Sequence record: NZ_CP072379.1
DNA: 38,144 bases
Strand: one strand, 5' to 3'
DNA from: a plasmid
This document shows positions 1-34,141 of this stretch, piece after piece. Each line of letters begins with the position of its first letter. Positions within the stretch are counted from its first letter, which is position 1. A program made the position numbers and the translations under genes. A model generated the notes under the pieces. It was not told the origin of the DNA, ran no database searches, and saw nothing but the letters and a program-made list of their open reading frames with translations.

Positions 1-3000
1 GCTGAATTTGCTGATACTCCTGCTCCTAAATGTGTTGTTTCAGCATATCTACTGAAATTGCTTCCTCCTGAACCAAACTTGTCTTCTCCTGAAAGAGATA
101 AGGCATTCAGGTTTACTTTGTTCACATCTAAAGCCAGATGATCTGCACTTAACATTCCGCCTGTCGATTCATAGCTATTTGCTTTAACAAATACAGTTCC
201 ATTTGAAGAAATTGTTCCCAAAGAGTTCACTTCTTCATGCTTAGTTCTGTCAAATTCGCCATTGTAATAGCCAACACTTCTCTTCGTTGTATCGTTTATC
301 ACTTTTCCATTGTCAGAAATTAAGACAACTGCTTCATTACCACTGATTTTTCCACCGATATTTTCGATATTTTCTACTGACTGAATGAAAGTTTTGTCTC
401 CAGTAATTTCTGAAAGTAAATTTGTTGCAGTTTCATTTTTTATAGTATTTGCCTGAACATAAGTAACTCCCCCATTACCAATTTTCATTCCATTATTTAC
501 AAAATTATCGGTTTTGATGTATGTCCCATTAACTCCACTAATTTTATTACGACCATCTGCAGTTATTGTATTCAAAGTATTTTTGCTTAAGTAAATTTTT
601 GGAACTAATACTTCAACACCATTAACATTTTGAGTAACATACCATATTAAATCTTTAGACAGTCCACTAATCTGCTCAGGTGTCAGCTCTTTTCCAACCT
701 GCAATCCCAATCTAGAACTTTCCATTCCTGCATTATCCATCAACGATTTTATCAAATCTTCATTAGATTTACCATTGATAAATGCTGTCCCTAATTGCTC
801 TGTCAATGCCCTAGTTATCAACTGATTTTCATAATATGCATCTCCAAGTCTTCTAACTCTGTTCCAGCTAGGCGTGTATCCTAATCTTGATAAAAAGTAA
901 TCACTTCCATAATACTTATTCAAGTCAACATATTTACTTCTAGTTTCCAGCAAATATTTTGAACTAGGATTCATATTCTGAGTAAACATTGCACTAGTCA
1001 ATAAAGGATTTACAGAAATTGTCCCAGTATTCAAAATTGCCTGAACAGATGACATATTATTCACAATTTGAATATTTGGATTCGCCAAATTTACATTAAC
1101 TGCACCATTTGTTGAAGAAATTCCTTTACCAATCGCATTTGTAAATAAGCTTCCAGCAACTCCATGTGTTACACTTCCATTATTGATTTTTCCATTTGCT
1201 TCAGTAATTGGAGATGTAATAACAGGAGCATTTATATTTACTACTGAACCTTCTATAATGCTTGGCTGTCCAGCTTCATATCCTATTTTTCCTTTTAGTA
1301 AATTTCCCTTATCATCAGTTAAAGTTCTTTTAAAAAATGTATCAGCAGACACTTTATTATGCCCTCTATGAAAAGCTACATAAACTTCTTCTCTTCCATT
1401 AGAAAGTTGAACTGCATTTCCTAATGTTACAGAATTTTCAAGACTTGAAGCATTGATATTTACAATACCTCCACCTGAAATTATACTATCCTTATTTTTT
1501 ACATTTCCTGAATTTATTGTAATATTTCCATTAGCTAACACTTTACCATATTCTGTTGTAGCATTACTTTTCATTTTTTCTTCTAATGCTATTTTGGGAA
1601 ACTTTACTGTTCCAGTTTTCATATCATTATGATTTCCTTCTTCCCCTATTTTCTCTTCGATCAAATCATAATGATTTGTAAATAAATATGATTTATATCC
1701 ATTTATTAAATTTGAATTTTTTAATTTCTCTAACCAATTACGCTGTGGAATTAAAACATCATTACTATGTTTACCCTTCGACATCTGCTTTCCTATTTTA
1801 TATATCCATCCATTATTTACTTCATTTTCGCTTAATTTTATTCCATCCCAAGTCTCATAATATTTCTCATACTTATCAAGGTTGCTGACTCTCCCAACAT
1901 TCTGAAAATCACTAGAAGTAATCAAAATATCTCCTGTAGCCTGAATCGTCCCAACATTGTTCACGATCTTTCCAGCATTCAGATCCATGTTTCCACCTAG
2001 AATTTCTCCCTCATCATTTAATATATCATTTCCTTTGATAATCAATGTCTGTCCACCGTAAATCGTCTTATCCTTGTTGTTTTGAACCTTGTTTTGAGCA
2101 TTAATTTCAAGATGTTTCTCAAATGCAATCAAATCATTGTTTGTAATGTCATTTCCACTAATTTTTCCATTATCTCCAGTAATTATTGCATTGTTCACAA
2201 TATTTCCTTGCCCATTAATAATAACTGTATCTGAAGAAATATCACGGTTATTTGTAAAGTCATTTGATGTAATCTGAATAAGCCCTGTACCCGTTGTATT
2301 TCCATTGTTTGTGATGTTTCTTCCTGAGATAATTAACCTTTGCTGTCCGTGAAGATTTCCATCTAAATTAATATCCTGCGTTGTTGTCAACACAGTGTTA
2401 TTAGCTTTAATTGTCCCAGTATTATCAAACTTCTGAGCATTCTGCATTGATATATCGCCTGATAGTATCTCTCCTGTATTCGTAATCTTTGAATTATCAA
2501 ATAAAATTTTGTTGTTAGATGCGACTTTACCATTATTCATAACATCTGCATTCGCTGAATTCACATCATTCATAGCCAAAATTTCCCCTGTATTTGTAAG
2601 TTTTTGAGTATCAAGATCTACATCTCTACTTGAATGAATCTGTCCACTATTTGTAGATTCATTTACTTTAGCCTTAACGTTGCCAGCACTAATTTTACCA
2701 GCATTTCTTAACTCAAATCCTTTAACTTCAACATTTTTCCCCTCAATATTTCCACCATTATGATTCACAAGTGAATCTGTAGCTGAAATATCAGAGTTAG
2801 TAGCAACTGTTCCTGAATTTTCCAATCTCTTAGATGAAATTTTGTCTCCTGACGCAATTTTTCCTGAATTTTTTACATTTTTAGCTGTTAATCTACCATT
2901 TGTAAGTATTTTACCGCCATTATCCACATCGTCTGCAGAAATTTTTCCTGACGCCAAGACTTTTCCAGTATTCGTTACATTTTTTGATTTAAAGTCTTTG

Positions 3001-4595
3001 GTATTAATTTTCCCTGAATTTTTCACATTATCAGTACTGATATTTTCCGCTTGAACTTCACCTGAATTTTCTGCATTTTTTCCTGACAAGTTACCATTTG
3101 CTAAGACTTTCCCGCTGTTTTTAATATCTTTTGAAACAGCTATATCGCTTCCTGTCTCTACATTTCCACTGTTTTCAAGATTTCCATTGACTGTAATTTT
3201 TCCATTTGACCTAACATCTCCTGAAGTTTCCAAATCATCTGTTGAAATTTTACCTACAGCTGCAATTTCTTTTGCATTTTTCACTTTTTTTGCTTTAAAA
3301 TTTCCTGCAGCAATGATTTTACCATTATTTGAAACATTATCTACCTGAATATTTTTCCCCGAAACTTTTCCAGATGATACAATATTTTTAGCTGTAAAAT
3401 CATCATTTGTCGATATCTCTCCAGTATTTTTTACATCTTTTGTGACCGTAACCTTATTAACTGAAGCCACTGACCCGCTATTATTTAATTTCCCTGAAAT
3501 CTGTGTCGTTTTTGAAACTTGAATTTTTCCTGAATTCGTTAAATCTTTTGTTTTCAAATTTCCATTTGCAAATATTTCAGAATCATTTTCAACATCTGCA
3601 TTCAAGCTAATATTACCATTAGCCTGTGTTTGACCTGCTAATTTTACAGTATTTGCTGTAATATTAATATCCTTGTCAGAACTGGCTATCTCTGATTGCG
3701 AATAATCAGAACCTTTAATTTCAATACCATTTCCCTTAATTTTAGCAACATTAATTTTACCGTCAGCTGTAATTTCCAGCTTTTCATCTTTCGAATAAAT
3801 TAATGCCCTTGAATTTACTCCAGCACCTTTATCTGTACTAATTATTCTAACCTGTCCAGCATACATTGACCCAAGATTACTTGCGTCTATAGCCACTGAA
3901 TTTATCCCACCTTTTGAAGTCACTGCTCCACTATTATCTACAAAATTTTCTCCCAAAGTTACGTCAACCTTGTTTCCGACAAGATTTCCCTGCATTTCCA
4001 AAGCTTTTGCGATAACATTAACATAGTCAGTATTTGTCGCATCAAATCCATTCGCTCCAATTACGACTCTCCCTTTTTCCACATCAATTCCTACAACATC
4101 TCCATCTTTCAGCTTAACTCTTCCTGTTGTCGGTATAAAATTCCTTATATTTATTGTTCCTGCCCCATTTAAGTAAATTCCATTTTCATTAGACAGAATC
4201 ACATTTACCTTATCACGGCTCAATGCTTCAATATATCCCTCAATTTGTGAACGGTTAGCACCGTTTACCTGCAGCAAGATTAAATTTGCAGCCTGATTTG
4301 GACCTAAATTCGGATTTGCATTAATTAGTCCAGCAAGATGGCTTCGTCCCAAATTATCAGCGTTATTAAGCACTTGACCTTCATGTCCAACATTATATTC
4401 CAAAAATTCATTAATACTTACACCCCGATTATTCGGAGTAGAAATATTAATAATTGGCGTTCCATTTGCTGAAGTGTCCAGTTTCGTATTGTGCTGAGAA
4501 TTAGGGTCCAGCACTAAATTTGCCGCGAAAATATTCATATTCATTGATACCAAAAGCAAAAATGCTACTGATTTTTTTAAAATTTTATTCTTCAA
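1..4595 (-). CDS. Two-partner-secretion exoprotein (TpsA; filamentous hemagglutinin/CdiA-like), N-terminal portion. The ORF runs off the left edge of the window and probably continues at 34946..38144 on a circular molecule.
   Basis: The minus-strand frame is open from a TTG start at 4595, preceded by GAAGGAGG, down to position 1. The N-terminus, MKNKILKKSVAFLLLVSMNMNIFAANL, looks like an extended signal peptide. It is followed by a TPS domain (NPNLGPNQAANLILLQVNGANRSQIEGYIE...) and then FHA-type repeats. The gene lies immediately downstream of tpsB on the same strand. Confidence 0.85.
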   Translation of the reverse strand, partial: MKNKILKKSVAFLLLVSMNMNIFAANLVLDPNSQHNTKLDTSANGTPIINISTPNNRGVSINEFLEYNVGHEGQVLNNADNLGRSHLAGLINANPNLGPNQAANLILLQVNGANRSQIEGYIEALSRDKVNVILSNENGIYLNGAGTINIRNFIPTTGRVKLKDGDVVGIDVEKGRVVIGANGFDATNTDYVNVIAKALEMQGNLVGNKVDVTLGENFVDNSGAVTSKGGINSVAIDASNLGSMYAGQVRIISTDKGAGVNSRALIYSKDEKLEITADGKINVAKIKGNGIEIKGSDYSQSEIASSDKDINITANTVKLAGQTQANGNISLNADVENDSEIFANGNLKTKDLTNSGKIQVSKTTQISGKLNNSGSVASVNKVTVTKDVKNTGEISTNDDFTAKNIVSSGKVSGKNIQVDNVSNNGKIIAAGNFKAKKVKNAKEIAAVGKISTDDLETSGDVRSNGKITVNGNLENSGNVETGSDIAVSKDIKNSGKVLANGNLSGKNAENSGEVQAENISTDNVKNSGKINTKDFKSKNVTNTGKVLASGKISADDVDNGGKILTNGRLTAKNVKNSGKIASGDKISSKRLENSGTVATNSDISATDSLVNHNGGNIEGKNVEVKGFELRNAGKISAGNVKAKVNESTNSGQIHSSRDVDLDTQKLTNTGEILAMNDVNSANADVMNNGKVASNNKILFDNSKITNTGEILSGDISMQNAQKFDNTGTIKANNTVLTTTQDINLDGNLHGQQRLIISGRNITNNGNTTGTGLIQITSNDFTNNRDISSDTVIINGQGNIVNNAIITGDNGKISGNDITNNDLIAFEKHLEINAQNKVQNNKDKTIYGGQTLIIKGNDILNDEGEILGGNMDLNAGKIVNNVGTIQATGDILITSSDFQNVGRVSNLDKYEKYYETWDGIKLSENEVNNGWIYKIGKQMSKGKHSNDVLIPQRNWLEKLKNSNLINGYKSYLFTNHYDLIEEKIGEEGNHNDMKTGTVKFPKIALEEKMKSNATTEYGKVLANGNITINSGNVKNKDSIISGGGIVNINASSLENSVTLGNAVQLSNGREEVYVAFHRGHNKVSADTFFKRTLTDDKGNLLKGKIGYEAGQPSIIEGSVVNINAPVITSPITEANGKINNGSVTHGVAGSLFTNAIGKGISSTNGAVNVNLANPNIQIVNNMSSVQAILNTGTISVNPLLTSAMFTQNMNPSSKYLLETRSKYVDLNKYYGSDYFLSRLGYTPSWNRVRRLGDAYYENQLITRALTEQLGTAFINGKSNEDLIKSLMDNAGMESSRLGLQVGKELTPEQISGLSKDLIWYVTQNVNGVEVLVPKIYLSKNTLNTITADGRNKISGVNGTYIKTDNFVNNGMKIGNGGVTYVQANTIKNETATNLLSEITGDKTFIQSVENIENIGGKISGNEAVVLISDNGKVINDTTKRSVGYYNGEFDRTKHEEVNSLGTISSNGTVFVKANSYESTGGMLSADHLALDVNKVNLNALSLSGEDKFGSGGSNFSRYAETTHLGAGVSANS

Positions 4596-4647
4596 ATATA
4601 CGCCTCCTTCTTTTCTGTTATCCTTAGTTTTTTTATCAATCTTTCAA

Positions 4648-6444
4648 TCAAAAAGAAATTTTCAATGCCGTATTAAAATATATTTCCTGCTTTTTCGGAT
4701 TCAAATATTCTGAGTGTGAAATTGGCTTTGCATACCCAAAATTAAAATCTAGATACTTTGTATCCAATCTAATCCCTGCCGTAGCACCTGTCATATATCC
4801 TTTCCCGTATTTTGAACTATCATTGTTGACTCTCACATATCCATAACTGTACCCAAAATATGGTGATACAATTGCTATTTTTTTTATAGGAATATTGTAA
4901 GATATTTCATTTCCAATCTCTATTGCTTTATCCCCTGAAATTGTACTCCTATGATAACCTCCTACACTTCCAACACCTCCTATAGACTGTCTCTCGCTCC
5001 CATAGAGCGTGTCATTTGAAAAAGTTGAATAAATGTTCGCCCTATATACAAAATGCTCTGTCACGGGCTTGTAATAGCTCATATCAAGCGTATACTTATC
5101 AAATTGTGCCTTAGGAGTTGTGCTAAGCTTCCCATCATCTATCTCTGCTCCAAAAATTTTAAGCCCTTTCTCATAACCTAAATTTACTCCAAAAAGTCCC
5201 TTAAACAGAGATGTCGTATAACTAATGTTAGCTGTACCTATTGCCAGCTTTCTATTAGATAAAACTGCTCCTTCCAAGTAATTATCATTATGCTTTCTTT
5301 TAATTCCAATTCCAGCTGTCAACTTACTTTTCTGATTTCTAAAGAGTATTTTATCTAAATTCATAGAAAGCGTATGACTGGAAGTATACAGGTCATAAAC
5401 TGTATTAGATGCATAAAAACTGCTTTCCTGAATACTTTTACTCGAACCTAGTTTCATTGTATAGTCTCTGAATTTCATCGTGTATCCGAAATTAAACATA
5501 TCCATACGCCTTTTATACGGCAGCCAGTCTCCCTTTGATGGATCATACCCAATTGGTCCAATTGGCAATATTTCTCCAGGTTTTAGTTGTTCTGCTCTTT
5601 TCTTCCAGCTTCTGTCAGGCATTTTCTTAGGAACGGTCAAATATGTAAAATATACATTGTCTCCTATCCCTAAAGGACTATCGATACTAAGGCTGACACC
5701 TTTTCTCCAAATACCATCCTGCTTGTTGTCTCCGTAATTATTTGAAATTAAGCTAACAGAATATTTATTTTTAAGAATATTTTTCACTTGAATTTTTGAA
5801 GTATTTTCTTTCTTTCCAGGTAATACCTCCATTGTCATGTTATTTGCCTGTATCGAATTAAAATTTTCTGTAGCCGTGTCTAAATCTCTTATATTGAAGA
5901 TTTCCCCCTTATTTTTCTTAAACATGAAAAACTCCTTTAATTTATCAAGACCATTTTCCGAATTAATTTTAATCTCCTCTATTTTTCCTGGAATAACTGC
6001 CAAATTTAATTTCCCTGTTGTCAGGTCATTATTAGACATAACTGTTACCGTCGAAGTTGTATATCCTTTTACAATTAATTTATTTGTGAATTCTGTTAAA
6101 AGATTTGTGATGTCCGCTGAACTTAATTCTAGATCCTTGTACTTGTCAATGATTCTTGATTTGTCTTTCTTTGACAGTAATCTATTATTGTCTCTTAAAT
6201 TAATTTCAGTAATTAAAAATTTTTTAGAATTGTCAGAAGAAACTATTCCTTTAGCTTCAACATTTGAGCCTTTATCAAATTGCGTATTTTCAAACTCTGA
6301 TTGTTTTTGCTTTTGTTCTATTCTAAGCCTTTCCTGTTCCAACTGTCTTTCTTGGTTATCTAAAATCTTTCTAGCTTCATTTTCAGGAGCTGACATACTT
6401 ATAACAGAAATTAATACTGCTAAAATTACAATAATTTTGTTCAT
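4648..6444 (-). CDS. TpsB-family outer-membrane transporter (ShlB/FhaC/CdiB-like) with a signal peptide and POTRA region
   Basis: A 598-aa ORF with an ATG at 6444 preceded by GGAGGTG. The GTG at 6453 given in the ORF track lies inside the Shine-Dalgarno sequence. A signal peptide MNKIIVILAVLISVISMSAP is followed by POTRA-like and beta-barrel sequence ending in a terminal F, as in ShlB/FhaC-family activators. It sits directly upstream of tpsA. Confidence 0.85.
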   Translation of the reverse strand: MNKIIVILAVLISVISMSAPENEARKILDNQERQLEQERLRIEQKQKQSEFENTQFDKGSNVEAKGIVSSDNSKKFLITEINLRDNNRLLSKKDKSRIIDKYKDLELSSADITNLLTEFTNKLIVKGYTTSTVTVMSNNDLTTGKLNLAVIPGKIEEIKINSENGLDKLKEFFMFKKNKGEIFNIRDLDTATENFNSIQANNMTMEVLPGKKENTSKIQVKNILKNKYSVSLISNNYGDNKQDGIWRKGVSLSIDSPLGIGDNVYFTYLTVPKKMPDRSWKKRAEQLKPGEILPIGPIGYDPSKGDWLPYKRRMDMFNFGYTMKFRDYTMKLGSSKSIQESSFYASNTVYDLYTSSHTLSMNLDKILFRNQKSKLTAGIGIKRKHNDNYLEGAVLSNRKLAIGTANISYTTSLFKGLFGVNLGYEKGLKIFGAEIDDGKLSTTPKAQFDKYTLDMSYYKPVTEHFVYRANIYSTFSNDTLYGSERQSIGGVGSVGGYHRSTISGDKAIEIGNEISYNIPIKKIAIVSPYFGYSYGYVRVNNDSSKYGKGYMTGATAGIRLDTKYLDFNFGYAKPISHSEYLNPKKQEIYFNTALKISF

Positions 6445-7161
6445 CGTTTGCACCTCCTTTCAAAAAATCTATTTTTTTTTTGACTTAGAATAATAACGAA
6501 TTATACAGGAATTTCAAAAAAATGTCAAGCTTTTGATAAAACATAGAAAGAATTGTATCAAAATTTTTAATTTTTAATACAGAACTTCCTTTCAAACATG
6601 CTCTATATCCTTCAAAAAGCGGTCAGATTTAACGAAAAATAGATTTTTGGTATAAATCCTTGGGTAATGGTAAAAGAATGCGTCTATGAGCTTTATTTTG
6701 CCAAATTTTGATTATTGATATAATTCTTTTGAGAATAAGGGAACTTTTTATAATAAAAAATATTAAAAACTACATTTTGGGAATTAAAGACTACAAGATT
6801 CATATAATGTAGTTTTATTTATTTTAAATTTTATTTTTTTATATAGAGGGGCTTTTTTATATACCATTTTTATATATTACTCTTTTAATATACCTTTTTA
6901 GATGGTCGCAAACACTTGTGAATACTGGTTTTGAATACATTAAAAAACAAGAAAATCAGTAATTAAAAACAAGTTTTTCAGTAGATTAAAAACAAGCACT
7001 TGTTGGGAATTATAATATTGATTAAATATCATAAAAAATATAATGATATTTAATATATCTATTCTTTTTAAAAAAGTTTTAAAATTTTTTATATTTTAAA
7101 ACTTTTTTAAAGTTTTTCCCCCCTCGGAAAGCACTATAAAATATGGCATAGAGTATATTTT

Positions 7162-7306
7162 AAAATAACAAAAAGTCTGTATTAAATAACAAAAAGTCTG
7201 TATTAAATAACAAAAAGTCTGTTATTAAATAACAAAAAGTCTGTTATTAAATAACAAAAAGTCTGTTATTAAATAACAAAAAGTCTGTATTAAATAACAA
7301 AAAATA
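7162..7306. repeat. Iteron array for rep1: six tandem copies plus one partial copy of a 21-22 bp unit, taaataacaaaaagtctgt(t)at
   Basis: Direct tandem repeats are seen 60-200 bp upstream of the rep1 start. An AT-rich palindromic stretch precedes them at 7061-7110 (aaaagttttaaaatttttt...tttaaaacttttttaaag) and ttaaaaacaag is repeated three times at 6940-7000. This is the classic layout of an iteron-type theta origin. Confidence 0.8.
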
Positions 7307-7371: not shown

Positions 7372-8412
7372 ATGAATAAAATTGTAAAATTTCATAATGA
7401 TTTGAACAGTATTAAATTTTCTTCTTTTAGAGCTGTTGAATACGATCTTTTTTTTGCTATTTTATATAAATTAAAAGATAAACAGGAAGAAGAGATTATA
7501 TTGACTTTTGAAGAATTAAAAAAACTTTCTGAATATAAAAAAACTCAAAATAAATATTTTATAGATTCACTAATAGAAATAAATCAAAATTTATTATCTA
7601 TCAAATTAAACTTCAAAAATTATACTGAAGGACTTTATATTGGAGCTACTTTTTTTACTTATTACGAAATAAATGAACAAGAAAAAACTTTATCAATTTC
7701 AGTAAATCGGAAATTGACTTATTTAATTAACGATTTAACAAAAAATTTTACTCAATTAGAATTAAAGAAAATGTCTCAAATGAGTAGTAAATATTCAAAA
7801 ATAATTTTTCGATTTTTGAAACAGTATGATAATACTAAAAATAATACTAATTTTTGGGAAATTGAAATAAATGAGTTTAAAGAGTTGTTAAATATTCCTT
7901 CTTCGTATTTAATGGCAAATATTGATACTAGAATTTTAAAACCTGCATTATCAGAGTTATCTCCTCTTTTTTATAATTTAAAACTTATTAAAAAGAAAAG
8001 GGGGCGAAAGATAGATCGTTTAAGATTTGAATGGAATACAGAAACTGTTGAAATGAAAAAAAAGAAGGAAAATGAACCAAAAAAATCAGAAGTTGAATCA
8101 AAAAGAAAATACAAAATCATAGAAAATACTCCTAAAGTAGAAGAAAAAGAGAAAACTTTAAGTGAACAAATTAAAGAAGAACTTGAGATGGAACAAGAAG
8201 CTTTAAATAGAAGTACCACTTTATTAGGAGCATATATTGCTGGATTAAAAGATGTAACAAATAACTCAATTATAATCGATTCTAAAAGACGTATAAACTT
8301 GAGAAAAGAGAAAATTGAAAAATTGGAACAATTTTCTAATTTGGCTGATGACGAAATTGATGAGAGTTTGGAAAAAGTGATACAGAAAGTATTGGAGATG
8401 GAGATTAAGTAG
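7372..8412 (+). CDS. rep: Plasmid replication initiator, Rep_3 (RepB/RepA iteron-binding) family
   Basis: A 346-aa ORF with an AAGGATG Shine-Dalgarno sequence. The N-terminus, FHNDLNSIKFSSFRAVEYDLFFAILYKLKD, matches my recollection of the Rep_3 N-terminal region. The C-terminus is Lys/Glu-rich. The gene is preceded by an iteron array. Confidence 0.8.
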   Translation: MNKIVKFHNDLNSIKFSSFRAVEYDLFFAILYKLKDKQEEEIILTFEELKKLSEYKKTQNKYFIDSLIEINQNLLSIKLNFKNYTEGLYIGATFFTYYEINEQEKTLSISVNRKLTYLINDLTKNFTQLELKKMSQMSSKYSKIIFRFLKQYDNTKNNTNFWEIEINEFKELLNIPSSYLMANIDTRILKPALSELSPLFYNLKLIKKKRGRKIDRLRFEWNTETVEMKKKKENEPKKSEVESKRKYKIIENTPKVEEKEKTLSEQIKEELEMEQEALNRSTTLLGAYIAGLKDVTNNSIIIDSKRRINLRKEKIEKLEQFSNLADDEIDESLEKVIQKVLEMEIK

Positions 8413-8435
8413 TATTTTTTGTGTGTTTGAGGGAA

Positions 8436-8513
8436 TTTAAAAACAGGATGATAAAACTACCATCCTGTACCATATATTATATTTTGAGTTTACACAAAAT
8501 TCTGGACACTCTC
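8436..8513 (+). repeat. Junction element: hairpin (caggatg-N10-catcctg, 8444-8467) followed by a 28-bp unit gagtttacacaaaattctggacactctc (8486-8513)
   Basis: Seen directly in the sequence. The hairpin also recurs at 28387-28410. The 28-bp unit recurs at 9128-9155, 9156-9183 and 34114-34141. Its 13-bp core tttacacaaaatt recurs at 13369-13381 (reverse complement), 13412-13424, 15692-15704 and 25099-25111. Confidence 0.7.
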
Positions 8514-8536
8514 TTTTTACTATTACCACTTATTTT

Positions 8537-8800
8537 TTATTTATCTCCATAATGAGAACCACATTGAACAATTTTTATAATCCCATCTTCAATTTTATAA
8601 ACAATCCTGTTCCCAGCATCTATTCTTCTGCTCCAATATCCACTAAAATCATATTTCAGAGCTTCCGGTTTGCCAATTCCTGTATAGCCATTTCTATCAA
8701 TATCTTTTATAAGTTCCAAGATTCTTTTAAAAACTTTTTTATCATTTTTTGCCCAGTATTGAAATTCTTCCCATGCTTCATCAGTCCACGATTTAATCAT
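8537..8800 (-). CDS. yoeB: Type II toxin of the YoeB/Txe family
   Basis: The sequence MIKSWTDEAWEEFQYWAKNDKKVFKRILELIKDIDRNGYTGIGKPEALKYDFSGYWSRRIDAGNRIVYKIEDGIIKIVQCGSHY aligns almost along its whole length with my recollection of E. coli YoeB. It overlaps the upstream antitoxin ORF by 8 bp. The ORF-track start at 8845 is probably spurious. Confidence 0.8.
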   Translation of the reverse strand: MIKSWTDEAWEEFQYWAKNDKKVFKRILELIKDIDRNGYTGIGKPEALKYDFSGYWSRRIDAGNRIVYKIEDGIIKIVQCGSHYGDK

Positions 8801-9047
8801 AATCGACCTCATGAACCGTTCCACCTGTTTTTTCCATTTGCTCAATAGATTTTTTTAATCTTTCAATATTTTTTGGACTATAAAAAGGATCTGAATCTAA
8901 TTCAAATGGCATTCTTCTTTCACGAGTGAATTTTTTTGCAAAAATATTAAATGCTGTCCCTATTGAAATTCCTATGTCCTCACAAATTTTTTCCATTTCT
9001 TTCTTTGTATCTTTATCTATTCTAAAATTAACAACAACTTTTTCCAT
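8793..9047 (-). CDS. Antitoxin with a RelB/DinJ-like ribbon-helix-helix N-terminus and a YefM/Axe-like C-terminal tail
   Basis: An 84-aa ORF. NFRIDKDTKKEMEKICEDIGISIGTAFNIFAKKFTRERRMPFEL resembles the DinJ/RelB ribbon-helix-helix fold. The C-terminal SPKNIERLKKSIEQMEKTGGTVHE resembles the YefM C-terminal toxin-binding region. It is translationally coupled to yoeB. Confidence 0.65.
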   Translation of the reverse strand: MEKVVVNFRIDKDTKKEMEKICEDIGISIGTAFNIFAKKFTRERRMPFELDSDPFYSPKNIERLKKSIEQMEKTGGTVHEVDYD

Positions 9048-9127
9048 ATAACATCAATTCCTTTCGTTTGATATAATTATTATATCATTTGAAATTATTT
9101 TGTCAATATATTTAATAATATTTTTTT

Positions 9128-9183
9128 GAGTTTACACAAAATTCTGGACACTCTCGAGTTTGCACAAAATTATGGACTCTCTC
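9128..9183 (+). repeat. Two tandem 28-bp junction units (gagtttacacaaaattctggacactctc followed by gagtttgcacaaaattatggactctctc)
   Basis: Direct tandem copies of the 8486-8513 unit. Together with that copy they bracket the yoeB/antitoxin cassette in direct orientation. Confidence 0.7.
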
Positions 9184-9915
9184 TTAATATATTTTAAATT
9201 TTTCGCTCATCCTTTTAAAATTTCTTTCTTGAATATCATTGTATTTTTCAAAAAAGTCTTTTGGTAATTCATCTTTAAATAATTTTAATAATTCTTTATA
9301 TAATCTTCGTTCTTCTATACTAAGAGAATAAGAGCTTTTTGAAATTATTTTCTTAGAAGTAAATATCGTTACTTCATCTAAAGAAGTAGGACTCATATAT
9401 GCTCCTCTTTCATTGCTCAGATCTATAGAAGTTAATAAATTTAGAATTATTGAAGAATATTTGTTTTTAGAATCCATTACACTTTTCACGTATTTTTTTT
9501 CTTGTTTTTCGCCATTTTCATCAAATGAAAACCAGTGTAATTCTACTTGTTTACTATTTTTTTTTATAATCCATTTCCCGTATCCGTAGTTCTCATCTGG
9601 GGATACATCGTATTTATGTTTCTTATTGAAAGAACTATAATAATTGTCAATATTTTCTAAAGTAAAACATTTTAAAACTTTTTCTTTTACTAGTGATTCC
9701 ATAGAATCTATTTTAGATTTTAGTGGAAACAATTTAAAATAAAAAACTAATTCATCTTCGTTCTCTTTATTCAAAATATATCCATAGCCTTCAGAAGGTT
9801 CTGGTGGTTCTCCTCTAAAAAAATCATAGTAACTCAAGCTATTCAAATACATAGATTGCCAAGAATAGCTCACATTTCCAAATACTAAAAATAAAATCAC
9901 TATTAGTTTTTTCAT
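9184..9915 (-). CDS. Secreted hypothetical protein (signal peptide, no lipobox Cys)
   Basis: A 243-aa ORF with an N-terminal MKKLIVILFLVFGNVSYS signal-like segment. The rest of the protein is Lys/Tyr/Asp-rich and I do not recognise a family. Confidence 0.5.
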   Translation of the reverse strand: MKKLIVILFLVFGNVSYSWQSMYLNSLSYYDFFRGEPPEPSEGYGYILNKENEDELVFYFKLFPLKSKIDSMESLVKEKVLKCFTLENIDNYYSSFNKKHKYDVSPDENYGYGKWIIKKNSKQVELHWFSFDENGEKQEKKYVKSVMDSKNKYSSIILNLLTSIDLSNERGAYMSPTSLDEVTIFTSKKIISKSSYSLSIEERRLYKELLKLFKDELPKDFFEKYNDIQERNFKRMSEKFKIY

Positions 9916-10182: not shown

Positions 10183-10440
10183 AAAATTTAGACTATTTTT
10201 TTAAGCAATTTTTTCATTTTTTTTCTTTATGCTTTCTTCGTATTCATTTGGACTTGTAAATCCTATTTTACTGTGGATCCTGCTATTATTATACCATATT
10301 TCTATATACTCGTATATTCCAGTTCTTAAATTTTCTAAATTTTCACTATGTACATATTCTTTTTTCAATGTTGTATGGAATGATTCCATGTAGACATTAT
10401 CATAAGGATTCCCTTTTCTGCTATAAGATATGGAGTGTAC
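10183..10440 (-). mobile_element. Truncated IS remnant (IS3-like rve transposase C-terminus plus terminal repeat tggagtgtccccaaaaatttagacta)
   Basis: The ORF 10201..10389 encodes ...ESFHTTLKKEYVHSENLENLRTGIYEYIEIWYNNSRIHSKIGFTSPNEYEE, a typical OrfB C-terminus of the IS3 family. The terminal roughly 80 bp, including the 26-bp end sequence, recur at 30713-30790. There is no DDE core or orfA, so the element is truncated. A second IR-like sequence, tggagtgtacctaaaagtttgac, at 10432 in the same orientation marks the truncation point. Confidence 0.65.
10201..10389 (-). pseudogene. IS3-family transposase OrfB, C-terminal fragment only
   Basis: A 62-aa fragment covering the C-terminal end of the rve integrase core. 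Confidence 0.65.
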
Positions 10441-10958: not shown

Positions 10959-11915
10959 TTAAATTTCATACTTCCTAAACCAATTTTCAAAATGCTGAAA
11001 ATTACTAAATTTAAAATTTTGTAAATGGTTATCATCTACATTTTTAACAGTTACAATTAATTCCTCATTAATTTCTTTAAAATTAATGATATTTAAATAA
11101 TTATATCTCTCAAATACTTTATCTTTCATTTTTATTTTTCGATTTATATAATTAATAGCTTTTTCAGGATTGTTTACTTTAAATTCTTTTTCTAGAATAT
11201 TTCCACAAATCTCCCTAAATTCTTTTTTTGTTTCCTTTTTACCAGATTTTTTAAATCTAAACTCATAACCTGAAACTTTACTTCTTCCTCGTCCTAAAGA
11301 ATTCTTATATTTTTTGATAACTTTTAAATTAAATTCTTCTCCGAGTTCGTTCATTATTGGTTTCAAAATTTTGCTATCAATCTTGTCTGTTTTATAACTT
11401 TGTGGAATATCTAATAAGTACTTAAATTCTTCAATACTAACAATCCAAATTCCTGTGTATCTAAACTGTTTCATTCTTCGATAAAATTCTTTTGTATAAG
11501 TAGACTTAAAATTCACAAATTCTTCTAATTCAAATCTTGTAAAATTTGATGTTAATTCATTTAAGACATACTTAAATTCTTCATTTATTCCAATTGTAAC
11601 AATTTGTTTTTCAACATTAATTGTATATTTTGTAAATAAAACGAACCGAGTCCATTCAACATCATCACCTATACGAATATTGCATTTTAAAAGCTTGTTG
11701 TAAGCACTGTCTAGCGTATTTACAAAATTCTTCATATCATTGTAAGGATATTTAATTAATTTTTTCAAATACTTAAAATCAAATTCTACATACTTTAAAC
11801 CTTGGTCTCTAATTCTGCTACAAATTGATATTAATAAATTAATTTCTGTGGAATTGAATTTTCTTAATGCTACTGTATTCATATCATTATTAAATTTTAC
11901 AACTTCATTAGCCAT
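10959..11915 (-). CDS. rep: Second plasmid replication initiator, Rep_3 family
   Basis: An ATG at 11915 follows GGAGGTTTGT. The N-terminus is MANEVVKFNNDMNTVALRKFNSTEINLLISICSRIRDQGLKYVEFDF. Overall it resembles rep1 and the Rep_3 architecture. An iteron array lies immediately upstream at 12025-12152. Confidence 0.8.
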   Translation of the reverse strand: MANEVVKFNNDMNTVALRKFNSTEINLLISICSRIRDQGLKYVEFDFKYLKKLIKYPYNDMKNFVNTLDSAYNKLLKCNIRIGDDVEWTRFVLFTKYTINVEKQIVTIGINEEFKYVLNELTSNFTRFELEEFVNFKSTYTKEFYRRMKQFRYTGIWIVSIEEFKYLLDIPQSYKTDKIDSKILKPIMNELGEEFNLKVIKKYKNSLGRGRSKVSGYEFRFKKSGKKETKKEFREICGNILEKEFKVNNPEKAINYINRKIKMKDKVFERYNYLNIINFKEINEELIVTVKNVDDNHLQNFKFSNFQHFENWFRKYEI

Positions 11916-12024
11916 ACAAACCTCCAAATTTTATTTTTAAATCCTAAATTAGTAAATTCGTTTTAATTATACACCCAAAAAAATAATTTTTCAACCCTTA
12001 GGGTTAAAAATGGTGATTTTCATG

Positions 12025-12152
12025 TTATTTTTGGGTGGTTTAATTAATTAAGCTTTGTTGTTTTTGGGTGGTTTATTTGTTATTTTTGGGTGGTTTAATC
12101 AATAAAATTTTGTTATTTTTGGGTGGTTTATTGTTATTTTTGGGTGGTTTAA
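12025..12152. repeat. Iteron array for rep2: five copies of ttatttttgggtggttta with alternating spacing of about 22 and 34 bp
   Basis: Direct repeats are seen upstream of rep2. A small perfect inverted repeat, aaccct-t-agggtt, lies at 11993-12005. Confidence 0.8.
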
Positions 12153-12783
12153 TAATACTCTAGACAAGTAAAAATGCGGTTTGTAGAGTACCTAAAAGTA
12201 TAAAAAAAGAGTATATATATAAAAGGTATAATAAAATAGGTTCTATTTTTTAAATAAAAAAAACTCAAAAGTATTTTCAACCCCAAAATAACCAAAATTT
12301 GAAATAAATAAAATAACCCTATTTCAATCAAAAATATAATTCCCTGACTCCCAAAATGTAGTTTTTAATATTTTTGTAACAAAAAAGTATCTTTACTGCT
12401 TATTACTTTTTACAATTCACTATTTTCCATTTTCAAAAAAATTTTACTTCTCCTTTTTATTGATTTTACTTAATGAAAATGCTATAATAAATATACCATA
12501 GTGGAAAAAGATCCATAGATGTATACAAAATAAAAACATAAAAATAAGGAGAGTAACAACTCTCCTTTTGTTATTTCCAAGTTTCTCCAATTATAATAAT
12601 TATTGTTTGTAAAATTACTATAACCAAGATTTTTATCCATAACTTTTCCATAGATGTATAATCTCCTTTCTTTCAAGGATTATTAAAATTATATCATTCT
12701 TTTCTCTATTTTAAAAAATAAAGCTATTGTATTGATAATATATTGAAATATTGATACAATAAACAAAAAAGGAGATGATTACT

Positions 12784-13044
12784 ATGACAAATGCAAGTTT
12801 GAACATCAGACTAGACAAAGAAACAAAAGACAAAGCAAATGAACTATTTAATAAATTCGGAATAAGTATGACTACTGCTGTAGTTATGTTTTTAAGAACA
12901 GCAATTAGGGAAAATAGAATTCCTTTTGAGTTAAAATTAAACGAACCTAGTAATATAACGCTTCAAGCCATTGAAGAAGGAAGAAGAATAGCAAATGATG
13001 GTTACGATAACATAAAGGAGTTGAGAGAGGCACTTGGCGTATAA
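12784..13044 (+). CDS. relB: RelB/DinJ-family antitoxin
   Basis: MTNASLNIRLDKETKDKANELFNKFGISMTTAVVMFLRTAIRENRIPFEL is ribbon-helix-helix DinJ/RelB-like. The second ATG, at 12784, has proper Shine-Dalgarno spacing after AAGGAG. A toxin reading frame follows immediately downstream. Confidence 0.75.
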   Translation: MTNASLNIRLDKETKDKANELFNKFGISMTTAVVMFLRTAIRENRIPFELKLNEPSNITLQAIEEGRRIANDGYDNIKELREALGV

Positions 13045-13310
13045 AGTTAAATTTACAGGACAATTCAAAAAAGATTTAAAATTAGCAAAAAAACAAAGGA
13101 AAAGATCTTGATAAATTGTTTAATGTGATAGAAATATTAGAAAAAGGAGAAAAACTCGAAAAAAAGTATAAAGACCATAGTTTATCAGGAGAATATAAAG
13201 GAACAAGAGAATGCCATATTGAACCTGACTGGTTACTAGTTTATGAAATAATGAACGATGTATTAATACTTATGCTATAGCGATTAGGTTCACATTCTGA
13301 ACTATTTTAA
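13034..13310 (+). pseudogene. yafQ: YafQ/RelE-family toxin, inactivated by a frameshift in an A-run near 13100 and an in-frame TAG at 13278
   Basis: Frame 1 reads YKVKFTGQFKKDLKLAKKQRK and then stops. The next frame reads DLDKLFNVIEILEKGEKLEKKYKDHSLSGEYKGTRECHIEPDWLLVYEIMNDVLILML, then TAG, then RLGSHSELF and a stop. Joined across the frameshift this gives a YafQ-like protein. There is no clean ATG start. Confidence 0.6.
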
Positions 13311-15587: not shown

Positions 15588-15628
15588 CAAAAGAGGGGAA
15601 GATCCGTTATTTACTTTCCCCTTTTTGA
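15588..15628 (-). terminator. Bidirectional intrinsic terminator (aggggaag...cttcccct stem with T/A runs on both sides) downstream of the LacI-family gene
   Basis: GC-rich stem gaggggaag-loop-ctttcccct followed by ttttt on the + strand and ttttg on the - strand. It lies between the AAA-ATPase start and the lacI-like stop. Confidence 0.45.
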
Positions 15629-15676
15629 GAGTGTACAGAATTTTGTATAAATTAATAGAAAATATAGTAAATTTAA

Positions 15677-15714
15677 TACTTCGCTATTCTATTTACACAA
15701 AATTATAGACATTT
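15677..15714 (+). repeat. Junction element tacttcgctattctatttacacaaaattatagacatttt
   Basis: Its left half matches the motif at 13396-13439. It contains the core tttacacaaaatt followed by atagacat, which resembles the atggacactctc arm of the 28-bp unit. Confidence 0.6.
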
Positions 15715-15734
15715 TAGATTTTTCTGTTTTGTTT

Positions 15735-16742
15735 TTATATTTTTTGACAACTTTCTCTTTCTATTAATTCAATAGGTAGAAAAACTTTCTTATGATAGTC
15801 TCTTCTACCTTCTAATAATTCAACTAAAGAATTTACTGTTTCTTGAGCTATTAATTTTGTATCTATTTTTATAGTTGTCAAAGGTGGTGTATAATATTTT
15901 GATAATTTTAAATTGTTAAATCCTATTATTGATATATCTTCTGGAATTCTTAGTTTATTTTCTCTAATTGCTTTGTATGCTCCCATTGCTATTGAATCAT
16001 TTCCACAAAAAATTGCTGTTGGTCTATCTTCTAATTCTAAAATTTCTTTCATCATTGAATAACCACTTTCTGTAGAAAAGTCTCCAATTTTTACATATTC
16101 TTCATTGTATAACCCTTCTTTTAGCATTATTTCTTTAAAGTATTTTTCACGAAAATCTACTAAATTTTTTACTACTTTATTCCTTCCTACTAGTAACCCT
16201 ATTTTTTTATGATTTAGTTTTAGAATATAGTTTATAACTATTTCTACTGAGTTTTTTGTATCAAATTTTATGTAATCTATGAAATTATCTGTATCGTATA
16301 CATCTACACAAATAATATTTTTATTTAATTCTTTAAAGAATTTCAATTTTTCTTTACTTACTTCACCTATAAAAATAATTGCATCTGTAAAAGAAAAAAT
16401 TGATATCTCATTTGATTTTATCATTTTTTTTATGTCGTCTAAATTAAAAAATTTTATTTTTGAAAAAATCCTTTTTAAATTATTTTCTAAATTTATTTTT
16501 AAAGATACGAAATATGGATCATCACTTTCAATTTTTTTATCAAAACATTTTATTATTGAAATATTAGATTGTGATATTTTACTTTTATTTCTTTTTTTTA
16601 CGTAATTTAGTTGTTTTACAGCTTCTAGAACTTTCTCTTTTGTAAAAGCACTAACTTCGAAACTTTCATCATTATTTAAAATTCTCGAAACTGTTGTTAT
16701 AGAAACTCCTGCTTTTTTTGCAACTTCTCTAATTGTAGCCAT
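15735..16742 (-). CDS. LacI/GalR-family transcriptional regulator
   Basis: A 335-aa ORF. The N-terminal helix-turn-helix MATIREVAKKAGVSITTVSRILNN is typical of the LacI family and is followed by a periplasmic-binding-protein-like effector domain. It is the last gene of the minus-strand lac cluster. Confidence 0.8.
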   Translation of the reverse strand: MATIREVAKKAGVSITTVSRILNNDESFEVSAFTKEKVLEAVKQLNYVKKRNKSKISQSNISIIKCFDKKIESDDPYFVSLKINLENNLKRIFSKIKFFNLDDIKKMIKSNEISIFSFTDAIIFIGEVSKEKLKFFKELNKNIICVDVYDTDNFIDYIKFDTKNSVEIVINYILKLNHKKIGLLVGRNKVVKNLVDFREKYFKEIMLKEGLYNEEYVKIGDFSTESGYSMMKEILELEDRPTAIFCGNDSIAMGAYKAIRENKLRIPEDISIIGFNNLKLSKYYTPPLTTIKIDTKLIAQETVNSLVELLEGRRDYHKKVFLPIELIERESCQKI

Positions 16743-16813
16743 TTTTCTCCTTTTTATTAAAAAATTTTACTGTAAAAAGGGGATAACTAAAACTATCCCC
16801 TAAAAAAACTCTA

Positions 16814-18259
<1,446 letters not shown>

Positions 18260-18279
18260 TTAGTATTAAAATACATTAA

Positions 18280-19983
18280 TTAATCTTGAAATTGTTTTTG
18301 TACAAAATCTAATGCACCTTTACCATCACGAGTCAATTTAATATACTGAGCTCCTTCAGTTTTAGCTAATTTAATTCCTAATTTATCAGTTTCTGCTTTC
18401 ATATCTTCAAAATTTGATGCAACTTGTGGTGCAAGAATAACTAAATCAAATTCAGGAAGTATTTCACGATGTGCACCATACCCACCTGCTGCAGCTTTAA
18501 CAGGAACATTAAATTCTTTTGCTGCTTTATTTAAAGCGTTAGCTAGAAGTCCACTTGTTCCTCCACCGGCACACAATACAAGTACATTTGTTTCTTTTGT
18601 TATATTATTTTTAACAGCCTCAGTTTTTTCAACACCAGCTTTTTTAAGAATATTATCTGCTTTTTCAGTATTAAAGTTAGCAGCTACTTTATCTTTTAAT
18701 TCGTTATTTGTAGTTCCTAGACGTTCTTCTTCAAGAATTTGTTTATCGTATACTTTTATGAATGGATAATAAATAATAAAGTCCACAACTACTAAAAGTG
18801 CCGCTAAAACAAATGATAATATTTGAAGATTTGTTCCCAATATTATTCCCAATGGTCCTGGAGTTGTCCATGGAAGGTTAGCAGTAAAGCTGTTCATTCC
18901 AAGCACATCTATAAATATTTTAAAAATCCAAACATTTACTATTGGTGCAAAGATAAATGGTATAAAGAATACTGGATTTAATACAATTGGAGCACCAAAT
19001 AAAAGTGGTTCATTTACACCAAAGAATGTAGGTACTACAGAAGCACGTCCAATAGCTTTATTTCTCTTAGATTTACAAATCCACATAAACATAAATGGCA
19101 CTATTAAAGTTGCTCCAGTTCCTCCCATTGTAACTATAAACATTTGTGTTCCTGAAGTTAAGATTTTATCCGCATGTTGTCCAGCTCTCATAAGATTTAA
19201 GTTTGCATCTATATTAGCATAAGTAACAACTGCAATAGCTGGTTCTACAATTGAAGGTCCATGAATTCCAACAAACCAGAAGAACGCAAAAGCTCCAAAG
19301 ATAATAGTAATTCCTACATATCCATCGGCTGCTGAGAATAATGGCCCAAAAAGTTTACCTACTGCTTCTGCAACTCCTGTACCAATAAAATGACGTACAA
19401 GAATGTCAAGAACGTAAAGTGATACAACTGATAAAGTAAATGGTATTACATCTTTAAAAACTTGTGAAATATTAGGTGGAACTTCTGAAGGCATTTTAAT
19501 AGTTACTTCATTTTTTATACAAAATTTATAAATAGTTACAGTTATAAATGATGCTAAAAATGCAGTTAAAAGTCCTTTTGTCCCCAAGAATCCAGTTGAA
19601 AATCCATCTTTAGTGGGATCTGCTGCTAACAATAACAAACCAACCATCGAAGCTAAAAGTGTAGAAATATAATTAACTTGATTAGTTGCTGGCATAGAAC
19701 GATTTACAGAATCTGTTAAAGATTTAGCTGTTGTTCCAGCTACTAAAAATGCTAAAATTCCCATAGAATAGCTGTATGGTTTCATTAATAAAGCTTCTAT
19801 ACTTTTTGGCCAAAAAAATCCAAAAGCATTTGGAACATAAGCAATTAAGATAAAAATACTAGAAAATAATATAACGGGCATCCCAGCTATAAAACCATCC
19901 CGAATCGCTCTTAAATATATATTCCGAGATAATTTTTCAAAAAAAGGTTTCCCTTTTTCTATAAATTCAATCAGTTTTTCCAT
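18280..19983 (-). CDS. lacE: PTS lactose-specific EIICB component
   Basis: A 567-aa polytopic membrane protein with a C-terminal IIB domain ([23 protein letters not shown]). Its start overlaps the lacF stop (TAATG). Confidence 0.9.
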
Positions 19984-25093: not shown

Positions 25094-25130
25094 CTATTTT
25101 ACATAAAATTTTTTACGCACCCATATAAAA
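25094..25130 (+). repeat. Junction element ctattttacataaaattttttacgcacccatataaaa
   Basis: Matches the motif at 13407-13439. It lies between the lac module and the mob gene. Confidence 0.55.
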
Positions 25131-28266: not shown

Positions 28267-28386
28267 TATTATTTTTTGAAAATAGAAACTATATAATAAC
28301 TTTAAGAAAAAAAACATTCAATATAATTTGATAAATAAAAATTACAGAAATAAGACTCTTTTCTTTAAGTAGAGGGTGTGTAAAAA

Positions 28387-28433
28387 CAGGATAATAAAAC
28401 TACCATCCTGTACCATATATCTGGACACTCTCC
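28387..28433 (+). repeat. Hairpin caggataataaaactaccatcctg plus a right half-unit ctggacactctcc (left half deleted)
   Basis: Matches 8444-8513 but lacks tatattttgagtttacacaaaatt. Confidence 0.6.
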
Positions 28434-28544
28434 ATAAATCTCCAAATACTATATAGTATTTAGAGGGTTACGCAAAAATTTTTACACACTCTAGTTACTT
28501 TTTAAATCAGTTTTACTGTATCTGAAAATTAAGAACTTTAGTTA

Positions 28545-31651: not shown

Positions 31652-32284
31652 TTAAGTTAAAGATTTAATTTGCTCCTCAATATCTCTAATTTCTTCTCTT
31701 ATCTTTTTTATCAAGTGTTGCCTTTTTACTTTTTCTCTCGTTAAAAAAATTCTTCTTTCTTCCACATCTGATAACTTTACTGCTTCTTTCTGTTCTTCAA
31801 TTTCTTTTAATTTTAAACTTGGATTATCTGATTTTATTACTTCTATAATTTCAGTTTCTTGAAAGTTTTCTTTTTTATGCCCTGTTAAAGTTTTTACAGT
31901 TCTGTTAGGTAATGTTAAAACCTTCTCTGGTTCTTCAAGTCCCTTAGCTTGATATTCTAAATATAATGAATATTTTCTTATTGCTACATTTGCACTGTCT
32001 CTATCTATACCTAATTTTTCTATCCATTTTCCAAATGACCCATTTCCTTTATTTGAAAAAATTTGATTGGCTTCAAATATTGCTTTTGAATATTTAAAAA
32101 TATGTTCCATTGACTTTTCTTTATGGAATGTTATGTCGTTTTCATATTTTATAAGCTCTTCTTTTTCTGTTCCTGATATATCAAGTTCTTCATAATCTAT
32201 ATTATAAATACTTTCAATCTTTGCTACTACAGGAACTTTCTTGCTATTAATTTTACTAAGATCTAAATTAAATTTTTTGCTCAT
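31652..32284 (-). CDS. Putative partition adaptor or centromere-binding protein (ParB-like partner of ParA)
   Basis: A 210-aa charged protein whose start overlaps the parA stop (ATGA). Its position and size fit a plasmid ParB/ParG-like partner. I do not recognise a diagnostic motif. Confidence 0.45.
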   Translation of the reverse strand: MSKKFNLDLSKINSKKVPVVAKIESIYNIDYEELDISGTEKEELIKYENDITFHKEKSMEHIFKYSKAIFEANQIFSNKGNGSFGKWIEKLGIDRDSANVAIRKYSLYLEYQAKGLEEPEKVLTLPNRTVKTLTGHKKENFQETEIIEVIKSDNPSLKLKEIEEQKEAVKLSDVEERRIFLTREKVKRQHLIKKIREEIRDIEEQIKSLT

Positions 32285-33021: not shown

Positions 33022-33095
33022 AACATCCTCCCTAAAAATAAATTTTTTTATCACTTTTAGTATAACATTATTTATAAAAAAATCAATTTTTTTAA

Positions 33096-33828: not shown

Positions 33829-34096
33829 TTTAGTTCCTTTCTATAAGGAATTTTTTTTTTTATCTCATACCTTATTAATAATAATTATATAATATAAATT
33901 ATCAAAAAACAATATCAATTTTAGAACTTAAAACAAAAAGGTATGAAAATAATTCATTTCCACACCTTATTTTAAGCCTCAATTTATAAGCAACTTTCAC
34001 TTTTTCTGTTCAGATTATTAAATATATAACTATATTTTAACAGAAAAATTTTTTTTTAGCCATAACAAAAACCTCCAAATATTATATAGTTGTTTT

Positions 34097-34141
34097 ACCA
34101 TATATTATATTTTGAATTTACACAAAATTATGGACACTCTC
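34097..34141 (+). repeat. Junction element taccatatattatatttt followed by a 28-bp unit gaatttacacaaaattatggacactctc
   Basis: Matches 8468-8513. It lies about 290 bp upstream of the recombinase gene start, and both are on the same side of the module. Confidence 0.65.

Follow-up and report, generated by a model that had tools for sequence, protein, structure and literature searches.

The window analysed here, a stretch of 38,144 nucleotides (nt) from the plasmid record NZ_CP072379.1 whose coordinates are used throughout, is a mosaic Leptotrichia plasmid in which a yoeB toxin gene and its antitoxin gene are bracketed by direct 28-nt repeats. Our comparison with complete insertion sequences (ISs) makes it highly probable that these 28-bp units derive from an IS256-family IS that has decayed on this plasmid, of which they represent the terminal inverted repeats (TIRs). 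Such decayed IS256-family ends mark the mosaicism of the plasmids and probably mediate it. The unit GAGTTTACACAAAATTCTGGACACTCTC is present in two identical copies on the + strand at 8486-8513 (unit 1) and 9128-9155 (unit 2), whose identity reaches 32 nt when the directly preceding TTTT is included, and unit 3 (9156-9183, + strand) follows unit 2 head-to-tail with 25/28 matches to unit 1. Matches to the 28-nt unit were found in 0 of 100 dinucleotide-preserving shuffles. The three units share one orientation, in which the outer tip of the IS is on the right, so that the yoeB/relB operon is located between two identical direct repeats. A previous sequence-only reading had described this layout of unit, yoeB, antitoxin, unit and unit in one orientation over 8486-9183, and its coordinates are confirmed. 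The locus is composed as follows (aa, amino acids).

8433-8485, + strand: probable right-end subterminal part of an IS256-family IS, with a hairpin at 8443-8468 followed by TACCATATATTATATTTT
8486-8513, + strand: unit 1, the probable right TIR of the truncated IS256-family IS, with its outer tip at the C of position 8513
8537-8800, - strand: yoeB toxin gene with its ATG at 8800 (87 aa; PF06769, E=4e-34; TIGR02116, 100 bits)
8793-9047, - strand: RelB/DinJ-family antitoxin gene (PF04221, TIGR02384), with an 8-nt overlap with yoeB
9048-9127, - strand: operon promoter region, TTGACA-16-TATAAT running from 9106 to 9079, then the palindrome TGATATAAT-A-ATTATATCA
9128-9155, + strand: unit 2, a probable solo 28-bp IS256-family TIR lacking subterminal IS sequence and fused to the toxin-antitoxin promoter
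9156-9183, + strand: unit 3, a probable decayed solo TIR that goes with the 243-aa gene and abuts the stop codon of this gene at 9184
9184-9915, - strand: 243-aa gene without Pfam match, the module to the right of the tandem units

Identity of the 28-bp unit

A degenerate form of the unit was used to scan one genome per species and retrieved at least 120 loci. Among the matches listed, most belong to Comamonadaceae, Vogesella and Rhodanobacter, and many are located no more than about 100 nt from a contig end, which is typical for multicopy ISs. An IS256 transposase was present within 400 nt on the predicted inner side in 60 of the 121 genome matches among those listed, and 42 more are cut by the contig end. 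The unit equals the TIR of full-length members of the family. One example is a Comamonas contig (L081) that consists of exactly one complete IS of 1332 bp with a 408-aa protein. It begins with GAGGGTGTGCAGAATTTTGTGTAAACGG and closes with the inverted partner, and its ends (GAGGGTGTGCAGAATTTTGTGTAAAC...) match the unit at 24/28 positions. The encoded protein is an IS256-family transposase of the Mutator type (PF00872, 411 bits; NCBIfam NF033543, 431 bits at a cut-off of 150). Another example is the chromosome of L. rugosa (L097), which harbors an IS256 transposase gene interrupted by an internal stop. Behind this gene come the hairpin, TACCATATATTATATTTT and a copy of the unit with 28/28 matches; the sequence directly before this copy reads ...GAATTTAAAAACAGGATGATAAAAATACCATCCTGTACCATATATTATATTTT. 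The L097 element ranges from 5235 to 6595 with its TIR at 6568-6595, and its last 81 nt show 98.8% identity to window positions 8433-8513, thereby identifying unit 1 as the tip of a truncated right IS end of about 80 bp. Perfect 8-bp target duplications were found at 7 of 15 complete copies in other genomes, and they fix the outer tip of the IS at the final C of CTCTC; read from this end, the unit is GAGAGTGTCCAGAATTTTGTGTAAACTC. The designation as 28-bp units in the sequence-only reading is correct for the repeats themselves, but the conservation around unit 1 extends beyond 28 bp to the left as far as 8433 (8433-8513), and the copies elsewhere in the window had been missed.

ISs of the IS256 family possess TIRs of about 24-41 bp and generate target-site duplications of 8-9 bp. 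Two characteristics of an IS256 TIR were found in the unit: transposase-encoding elements end in it, and the subterminal TGTAAA is present. The structural study of ISCth4 reported this motif to be conserved in the IS256 family (PMC7780238). It occupies TIR positions 20-25 in units 1 and 2 and in a further copy at 34114, and unit 3 has the decayed form TGCAAA. The right TIR of ISCth4 contains a TTTACA -35-like hexamer together with the subterminal TGTAAA, as does the unit. Unit 3 is apparently an older, mutated solo TIR.

Besides the three units, the window holds at least five further fragments of the same IS256-family element.

15627-15717, no strand assigned: miniature element of about 91 bp with inverted IS256-type TIRs at 15627-15654 (- strand, 4 mismatches) and, in degenerate form, at about 15690-15717 (+ strand)
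25098-25122, + strand: left-type IS256 TIR with a BLAST match to IS positions 10-34, adjoining the 3' flank of the Mob_Pre gene module
28372-28432, + strand: IS256 debris, a miniature element with an internal deletion (left tip, hairpin and right tip)
28447-28493, + strand: IS256 debris, a second left-type end
34047-34141, + strand: truncated left IS end, comprising a TIR at 34114-34141 (2 mismatches, outer tip at 34141), subterminal sequence, a ribosome-binding site and the first transposase codons ATGGCTAAAAA on the - strand

The left end at 34047-34141 corresponds in BLAST to positions 24-104 and 1325-1370 of the L097 IS, and it is located 286 bp upstream of a tyrosine recombinase/ParA operon. 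Miniature elements similar to that at 15627-15717 are present in L057 (L. rugosa chromosome, at about 7279), L118, L039 and L004 (L. wadei plasmid, 8071-8147), and those of L057 and L004 have a length of 70-90 bp. Full copies of IS256-family elements measure about 1.33-1.36 kb and carry 8-bp target duplications, whereas the window has ends only, namely a right end of about 80 bp, a left end of about 95 bp, miniatures and bare 28-bp TIRs.

The yoeB module and its junctions in related plasmids

Profile searches placed the toxin (PF06769, TIGR02116) and the antitoxin (PF04221, TIGR02384) above all respective cut-offs. The yoeB DNA is 96% identical to the annotated Txe/YoeB gene of the L. shahii plasmid NZ_AP019828, and a protein identical to the antitoxin is present in 1763 blocks of the assembly index. 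The promoter is a 12/12 consensus match with TG. The combination of YoeB with a RelB/DinJ-type antitoxin, overlapping genes and a promoter with palindrome characterizes the pair, as judged from these sequence features, as a type II toxin-antitoxin system, and it appears to be an unremarkable addiction module, complete in itself and equipped with a promoter of its own. Transcripts of the operon would end at the hairpin of the IS end, which, read on the - strand (8468 to 8443), is a predicted intrinsic terminator. The same toxin-antitoxin pair, 93-96% identical, is present without flanking units in L. shahii and L. wadei plasmids and in L144, and the homology stops at 8514 and 9127. We assigned the region 9048-9127 to the toxin-antitoxin module and not to the IS because it is conserved in these unit-less loci (L003, L004, L144). 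An antitoxin alone was observed at 15838-16194 of L004 (NZ_AP019830, L. wadei), where the homology starts at window position 8771, indicating that yoeB has been deleted and the antitoxin orphaned.

The conservation of the promoter region also bears on the possibility that the units are binding sites for plasmid maintenance, i.e. Rep iterons, a partition centromere or an antitoxin operator. Such a role would be compatible with a partial dyad and with the positions of the units beside a Rep3 gene and upstream of both the toxin-antitoxin promoter and the ParA operon. The Rep3-family replication initiator gene to the left of the locus (7372-8412, + strand; PF01051/PF21205), however, has its own iterons in a separate array of 6.5 repeats of 22 bp at 7163-7303, which are unrelated to the 28-bp unit; Rep iterons were rejected because such 22-bp arrays are separate from the units. 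An antitoxin operator is unlikely, since the promoter and the palindrome are located inside 9048-9127 and retained where units are absent. Moreover, IS copies on chromosomes of unrelated phyla terminate in the sequence of the unit, and we consider a maintenance function of the units barely conceivable. A promoter made by the unit was likewise rejected, as inspection by eye revealed no acceptably spaced hexamer pair within the unit and its conserved flank. The sole promoter-like scan match inside the units is a weak one (9/12, TGGACA-17-AATTAT, 9145-9173, + strand), which lies across units 2 and 3 and faces no gene. CRISPR-like repeats were rejected because there are no spacers, and no Rfam match was found anywhere in the window.

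For the analysis of the junctions, we gathered more than 40 related stretches by exact-protein look-ups and by a metagenome scan for the junction of promoter and unit 2, including contigs from oral metagenomes. The comparison showed that the unit edges are the seams where related plasmids stop being alike. Homology ended in 20 loci at 9154-9156, in seven at 8510-8520, in three at 9127-9133, in 11 at 25098/25128 and in one at 34141, with the principal breakpoint at 9155, where unit 2 has its outer tip. The flanks form 16 clusters on the left and 38 on the right in 44 combinations, and the side comprising toxin, antitoxin and promoter is paired with eight right-hand clusters. The junction of promoter and unit 2, TTTTTTT followed by GAGTTTACAC, is invariant in every contig that has unit 2. 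The sequence past 9155, by contrast with this constant side, falls into at least eight clusters of 24-nt flanks, several of which represent variants of the region downstream of Mob_Pre.

Unit 3 accompanies the 243-aa gene in L125-L134, L143, L110 and L156, and its junction, CTCTC followed by TTAATA..TTTTAAATTTTTCGCTCATCC, recurs in the latter two. In L110, a left-end remnant of the IS is joined to the stop-codon flank of the 243-aa gene. In L156, a Rep3 gene is followed by a diverged right IS end, whose TIR resembles unit 3, and then by the 243-aa gene, and the toxin-antitoxin pair is missing from this arrangement. Given that unit 2 stays with the promoter and unit 3 with the 243-aa gene, the tandem units represent the seam of two modules, each of which brought a TIR. 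The proposal that the doubling is the scar of a previous cassette junction is therefore right in that two modules meet here, but the repeats are TIRs and not cassette sites.

The sequence-only reading had suggested searching homologous plasmids for an empty site with a single unit, and we found one such case. L055 is composed of the Rep3 end, one unit and the flank R14, and L140 of the Rep3 end, a unit, the toxin-antitoxin pair, a unit and R14; the two loci are 97% identical over 630 nt on the R14 side and 77% on the Rep3 side. The block of the Rep3 3' end and the IS-end remnant recurs in L017, L055 and L082. The alignment of both loci documents that at least one gain or loss of the toxin-antitoxin pair together with one unit has happened. 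The idea that the pair moves as a unit is supported insofar as L055 and L140 differ by exactly this segment, but the pair does not depend on the units, as it also occurs elsewhere without them, and six loci share a larger block with the window that ranges from rep to unit 2.

Proposed recombination between IS ends and alternative readings

The dispersed TIR copies may provide portable homology of 28-80 bp, and recombination between them, the most likely route, would shuffle modules among plasmids. A second crossover in the homologous rep gene would often complete the exchange. One example is the block of the six loci mentioned above (L135, L136, L138-L141), which extends from 7967 inside rep to 9155 in unit 2 and indicates two crossovers, located in the homologous rep gene and at the TIR. 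Recombination between units 1 and 2 could delete the toxin-antitoxin pair, and the reverse exchange could add it. Another example is the TIR upstream of the recombinase gene, for which seven regions were aligned. L161 and L167 have a TIR of the left type, the window and L166 one of the right type and L163 and L168 a hybrid, and L170 has no IS remnant. Hybrid TIRs thus exist, and the mixture of types at one site presumably arose by gene conversion between IS ends, or by crossover, in a shared stretch of about 13-28 nt. The TIR-type sites are located at about 1180-1220 in L161, L163 and L166-L168, compared with 34096-34141 in the window. Within unit 2, all five variable positions (5/5) are in the outer 12 nt (P ~0.008 if evenly spread), and several variants are specific to one right-hand cluster.

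A number of observations weigh against the identification of the units and the proposed route. No target duplications were found around the L097 copy, the remnants in the window or the miniature elements, and no IS256 transposase or transposase remnant is present within the window. The single full-length Leptotrichia copy examined, L097, is broken by its internal stop. Among the PLSDB plasmids, only end fragments matched the Leptotrichia IS at high identity and the nearest full transposase genes are clostridial (about 66%); the literature on IS256 in Leptotrichia yielded nothing specific. With respect to the route, 28 bp are near the lower limit for RecA-type recombination. The inner edges of the solo units are also sharp homology boundaries (between 9127 and 9128 and between units 2 and 3), which simple IS insertion fails to explain, so that an extra deletion or an unusual joining is needed. 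Plain homologous recombination predicts neither head-to-tail TIRs nor partial tips. Such tips are present directly after unit 1 in L127-L132, where 13 nt of the TIR tip (TCTGGATACTCTC) follow (e.g. L127, 4403-4443), and between unit 2 and the Mob flank in L136-L138, L142, L155 and L160, where tips of 6-9 nt were found (ACACTC, ACACTCCTC, AAACTCTC). The sharp inner edges and the head-to-tail and tip junctions may reflect microhomology-mediated deletion, as ATATTTT is common to the subterminal region of the IS and the toxin-antitoxin promoter, or else the joining of one tip beside another TIR by a transposase provided in trans. The exchange of modules may also involve, on occasion, end-joining or deletion events caused by an IS256 transposase that is encoded elsewhere in the cell.

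A more far-reaching version of the latter idea is that solo 28-bp TIRs still serve as portable recombination sites for a chromosomally encoded transposase, which could join, excise and reinsert modules, head-to-tail arrangements included. By analogy with IS26 translocatable units, an IS256-family enzyme acting in trans would use minimal 28-bp TIRs for the excision of TIR-bounded modules, their head-to-tail joining and their insertion beside other TIRs. Each solo unit is indeed a complete minimal TIR, and in ISCth4, 26 bp of the TIR suffice for binding of the transposase and the recipient TIR is bound loosely (PMC7780238). Whole or 5'-truncated units that retain the outer tip recur after complete units, which resembles TIR-targeted joining, no fewer than eight flank clusters adjoin the outer tip of unit 2, and a partial dyad, the best in the unit (9-8-9 at 7/9), lets its inner edge faintly mimic the tip. 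Yet a transposase is encoded neither in the window nor on the two complete reference plasmids, target duplications were not seen, and the shared block of the six loci starts inside rep and not at a TIR. The variants in the outer half of unit 2, sorted by flank cluster, fit crossovers within the repeat better than a movement with fixed ends. To our knowledge, such a conservative reaction has not been described for IS256-family enzymes, and we regard this scenario as unlikely. The likeness to IS26 consists of modules bounded by direct IS-derived repeats that mark the junctions and of one variant pair that differs by a module plus one repeat. IS26 units comprise a whole IS26 with its transposase and move by a characterised conservative reaction; here, the repeat is only the 28-bp TIR of an IS256-family element, and an enzyme acting on it is hypothetical. 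If the scenario were true, solo IS ends would form a system for the exchange of cassettes on these plasmids, comparable to the translocatable units of IS26 or to pdif modules; otherwise the exchange is routine.

The sequence-only reading had favored an integron-cassette-like or dif-module-like layout. In such a model, the units would be sites of a site-specific recombinase (attC-like, Xer/dif-like or those of the 213-aa tyrosine recombinase) and the pair a true excisable cassette, and strand exchange would be expected inside CAAAATTC. The direct repeats, the empty-site pair L055/L140, the unit 286 bp upstream of the tyrosine recombinase gene (33187-33828) and the partial 9-8-9 dyad are in line with this model, as is the restriction of the variable positions to the outer arm if the crossover were central. 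The proposal nevertheless did not withstand the comparison and is very improbable. Across phyla, the unit is the IS256 TIR at the ends of transposase genes, and its copy upstream of the recombinase is a truncated left IS end including the transposase start codon, while L170, one of the seven aligned regions, has no IS remnant at this position. The complete plasmids of L. shahii and L. wadei carry units and lack a homologue of the recombinase, and both this absence and the truncated IS end led us to reject a site of the tyrosine recombinase. The protein itself reaches 59.8 bits against a cut-off of 265 for integron integrases (TIGR02249) and 69-70 bits against about 330 for XerC/D. Neither strand of the unit contains a GTTRRRY core, 11-6-11 arms are complementary at only 6/11 positions, the repeats are direct, and the same toxin-antitoxin pair exists without units.

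There are resemblances to both systems. Like the locus described here, the pdif modules of Acinetobacter are small segments of mosaic plasmids, in many cases toxin-antitoxin pairs, that have a 28-bp repeat on either side and recur in varied contexts. The pdif sites are 11-6-11 sites bound by XerC and XerD whose orientation alternates around the module, whereas the repeats of the window are direct IS ends with a weak 11-6-11 dyad (6/11). Read in gene orientation, the repeat is located just 3' of the stop codon of each module, as in integron cassettes. An attC structure, the GTTRRRY core, IntI and an attI/Pc platform are lacking, however, and the sole tyrosine recombinase (213 aa) is encoded 24 kb away. 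Integron cassettes are usually devoid of a promoter of their own, and the toxin-antitoxin module differs from them by its 12/12 consensus promoter. A composite transposon with toxin-antitoxin cargo was rejected as well, because the flanking TIRs are direct and not inverted and target duplications are absent. The tandem of units 2 and 3 also differs from the junction of IS256 circles, which is an inverted arrangement of right end, spacer and left end, in that two bare TIRs are fused head-to-tail and in direct orientation.

Decayed IS256-family ends and ordinary plasmid mosaicism hence explain a striking repeat layout by known biology. In the oral Leptotrichia plasmids, IS256 fragments coincide with the seams of a very mosaic population, and the 28-mer is useful as a marker of module boundaries and contig breaks in these assemblies. 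More generally, 28-bp direct repeats around a toxin-antitoxin pair need not be dif-like or integron-like.

Plasmid background of the locus

In PLSDB, the records closest to the window are plasmids of L. shahii and L. wadei. To judge from related contigs with lengths of 38,080 and 38,210 bp, the plasmid is apparently circular, about 38 kb in size and cut inside a haemagglutinin-like gene; the window ends do not overlap. This very large filamentous-haemagglutinin-like gene extends across both window ends (1-6453; 34946-38125, - strand) and belongs to a two-partner secretion system with a ShlB/FhaC transporter (4648-6453).

In addition to the Rep3 gene next to unit 1, the window contains a second one at 10959-11927 (- strand), with iterons at 12023-12157 that consist of 21-22-bp repeats in a 55-bp period. 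A chimeric rep gene is present in L135, L136 and L138-L141, where homology to the first rep starts only at 7967 and the N-terminal part is like the second type. Near the locus, the C-terminal 62 aa of an IS3-family (rve) transposase at 10201-10389 (- strand) represent the remnant of another IS, unrelated to the IS256-family element. At 12775-13044 (+ strand), there is a further antitoxin gene of the RelB family, followed by a 54-aa open reading frame (13116-13280, + strand), possibly a truncated toxin of the RelE/YafQ type.

The miniature element at 15627-15717 has no coding capacity and lies next to a cluster for sugar use (lactose phosphotransferase system [PTS]/GH1; 15735-19983, - strand), which encodes a LacI-family regulator, a GH1 phospho-beta-glycosidase and a PTS EIIC-EIIB protein. 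The window also carries a Mob_Pre gene. The operon downstream of the left IS end comprises the genes of the 213-aa tyrosine recombinase (33187-33828, - strand), a ParA ATPase (32281-33054, - strand) and a 210-aa protein (31652-32284, - strand). The latter has no Pfam match and may be a ParB-like adaptor. The recombinase is very short, and an identical protein is present in 605 blocks of the assembly index.

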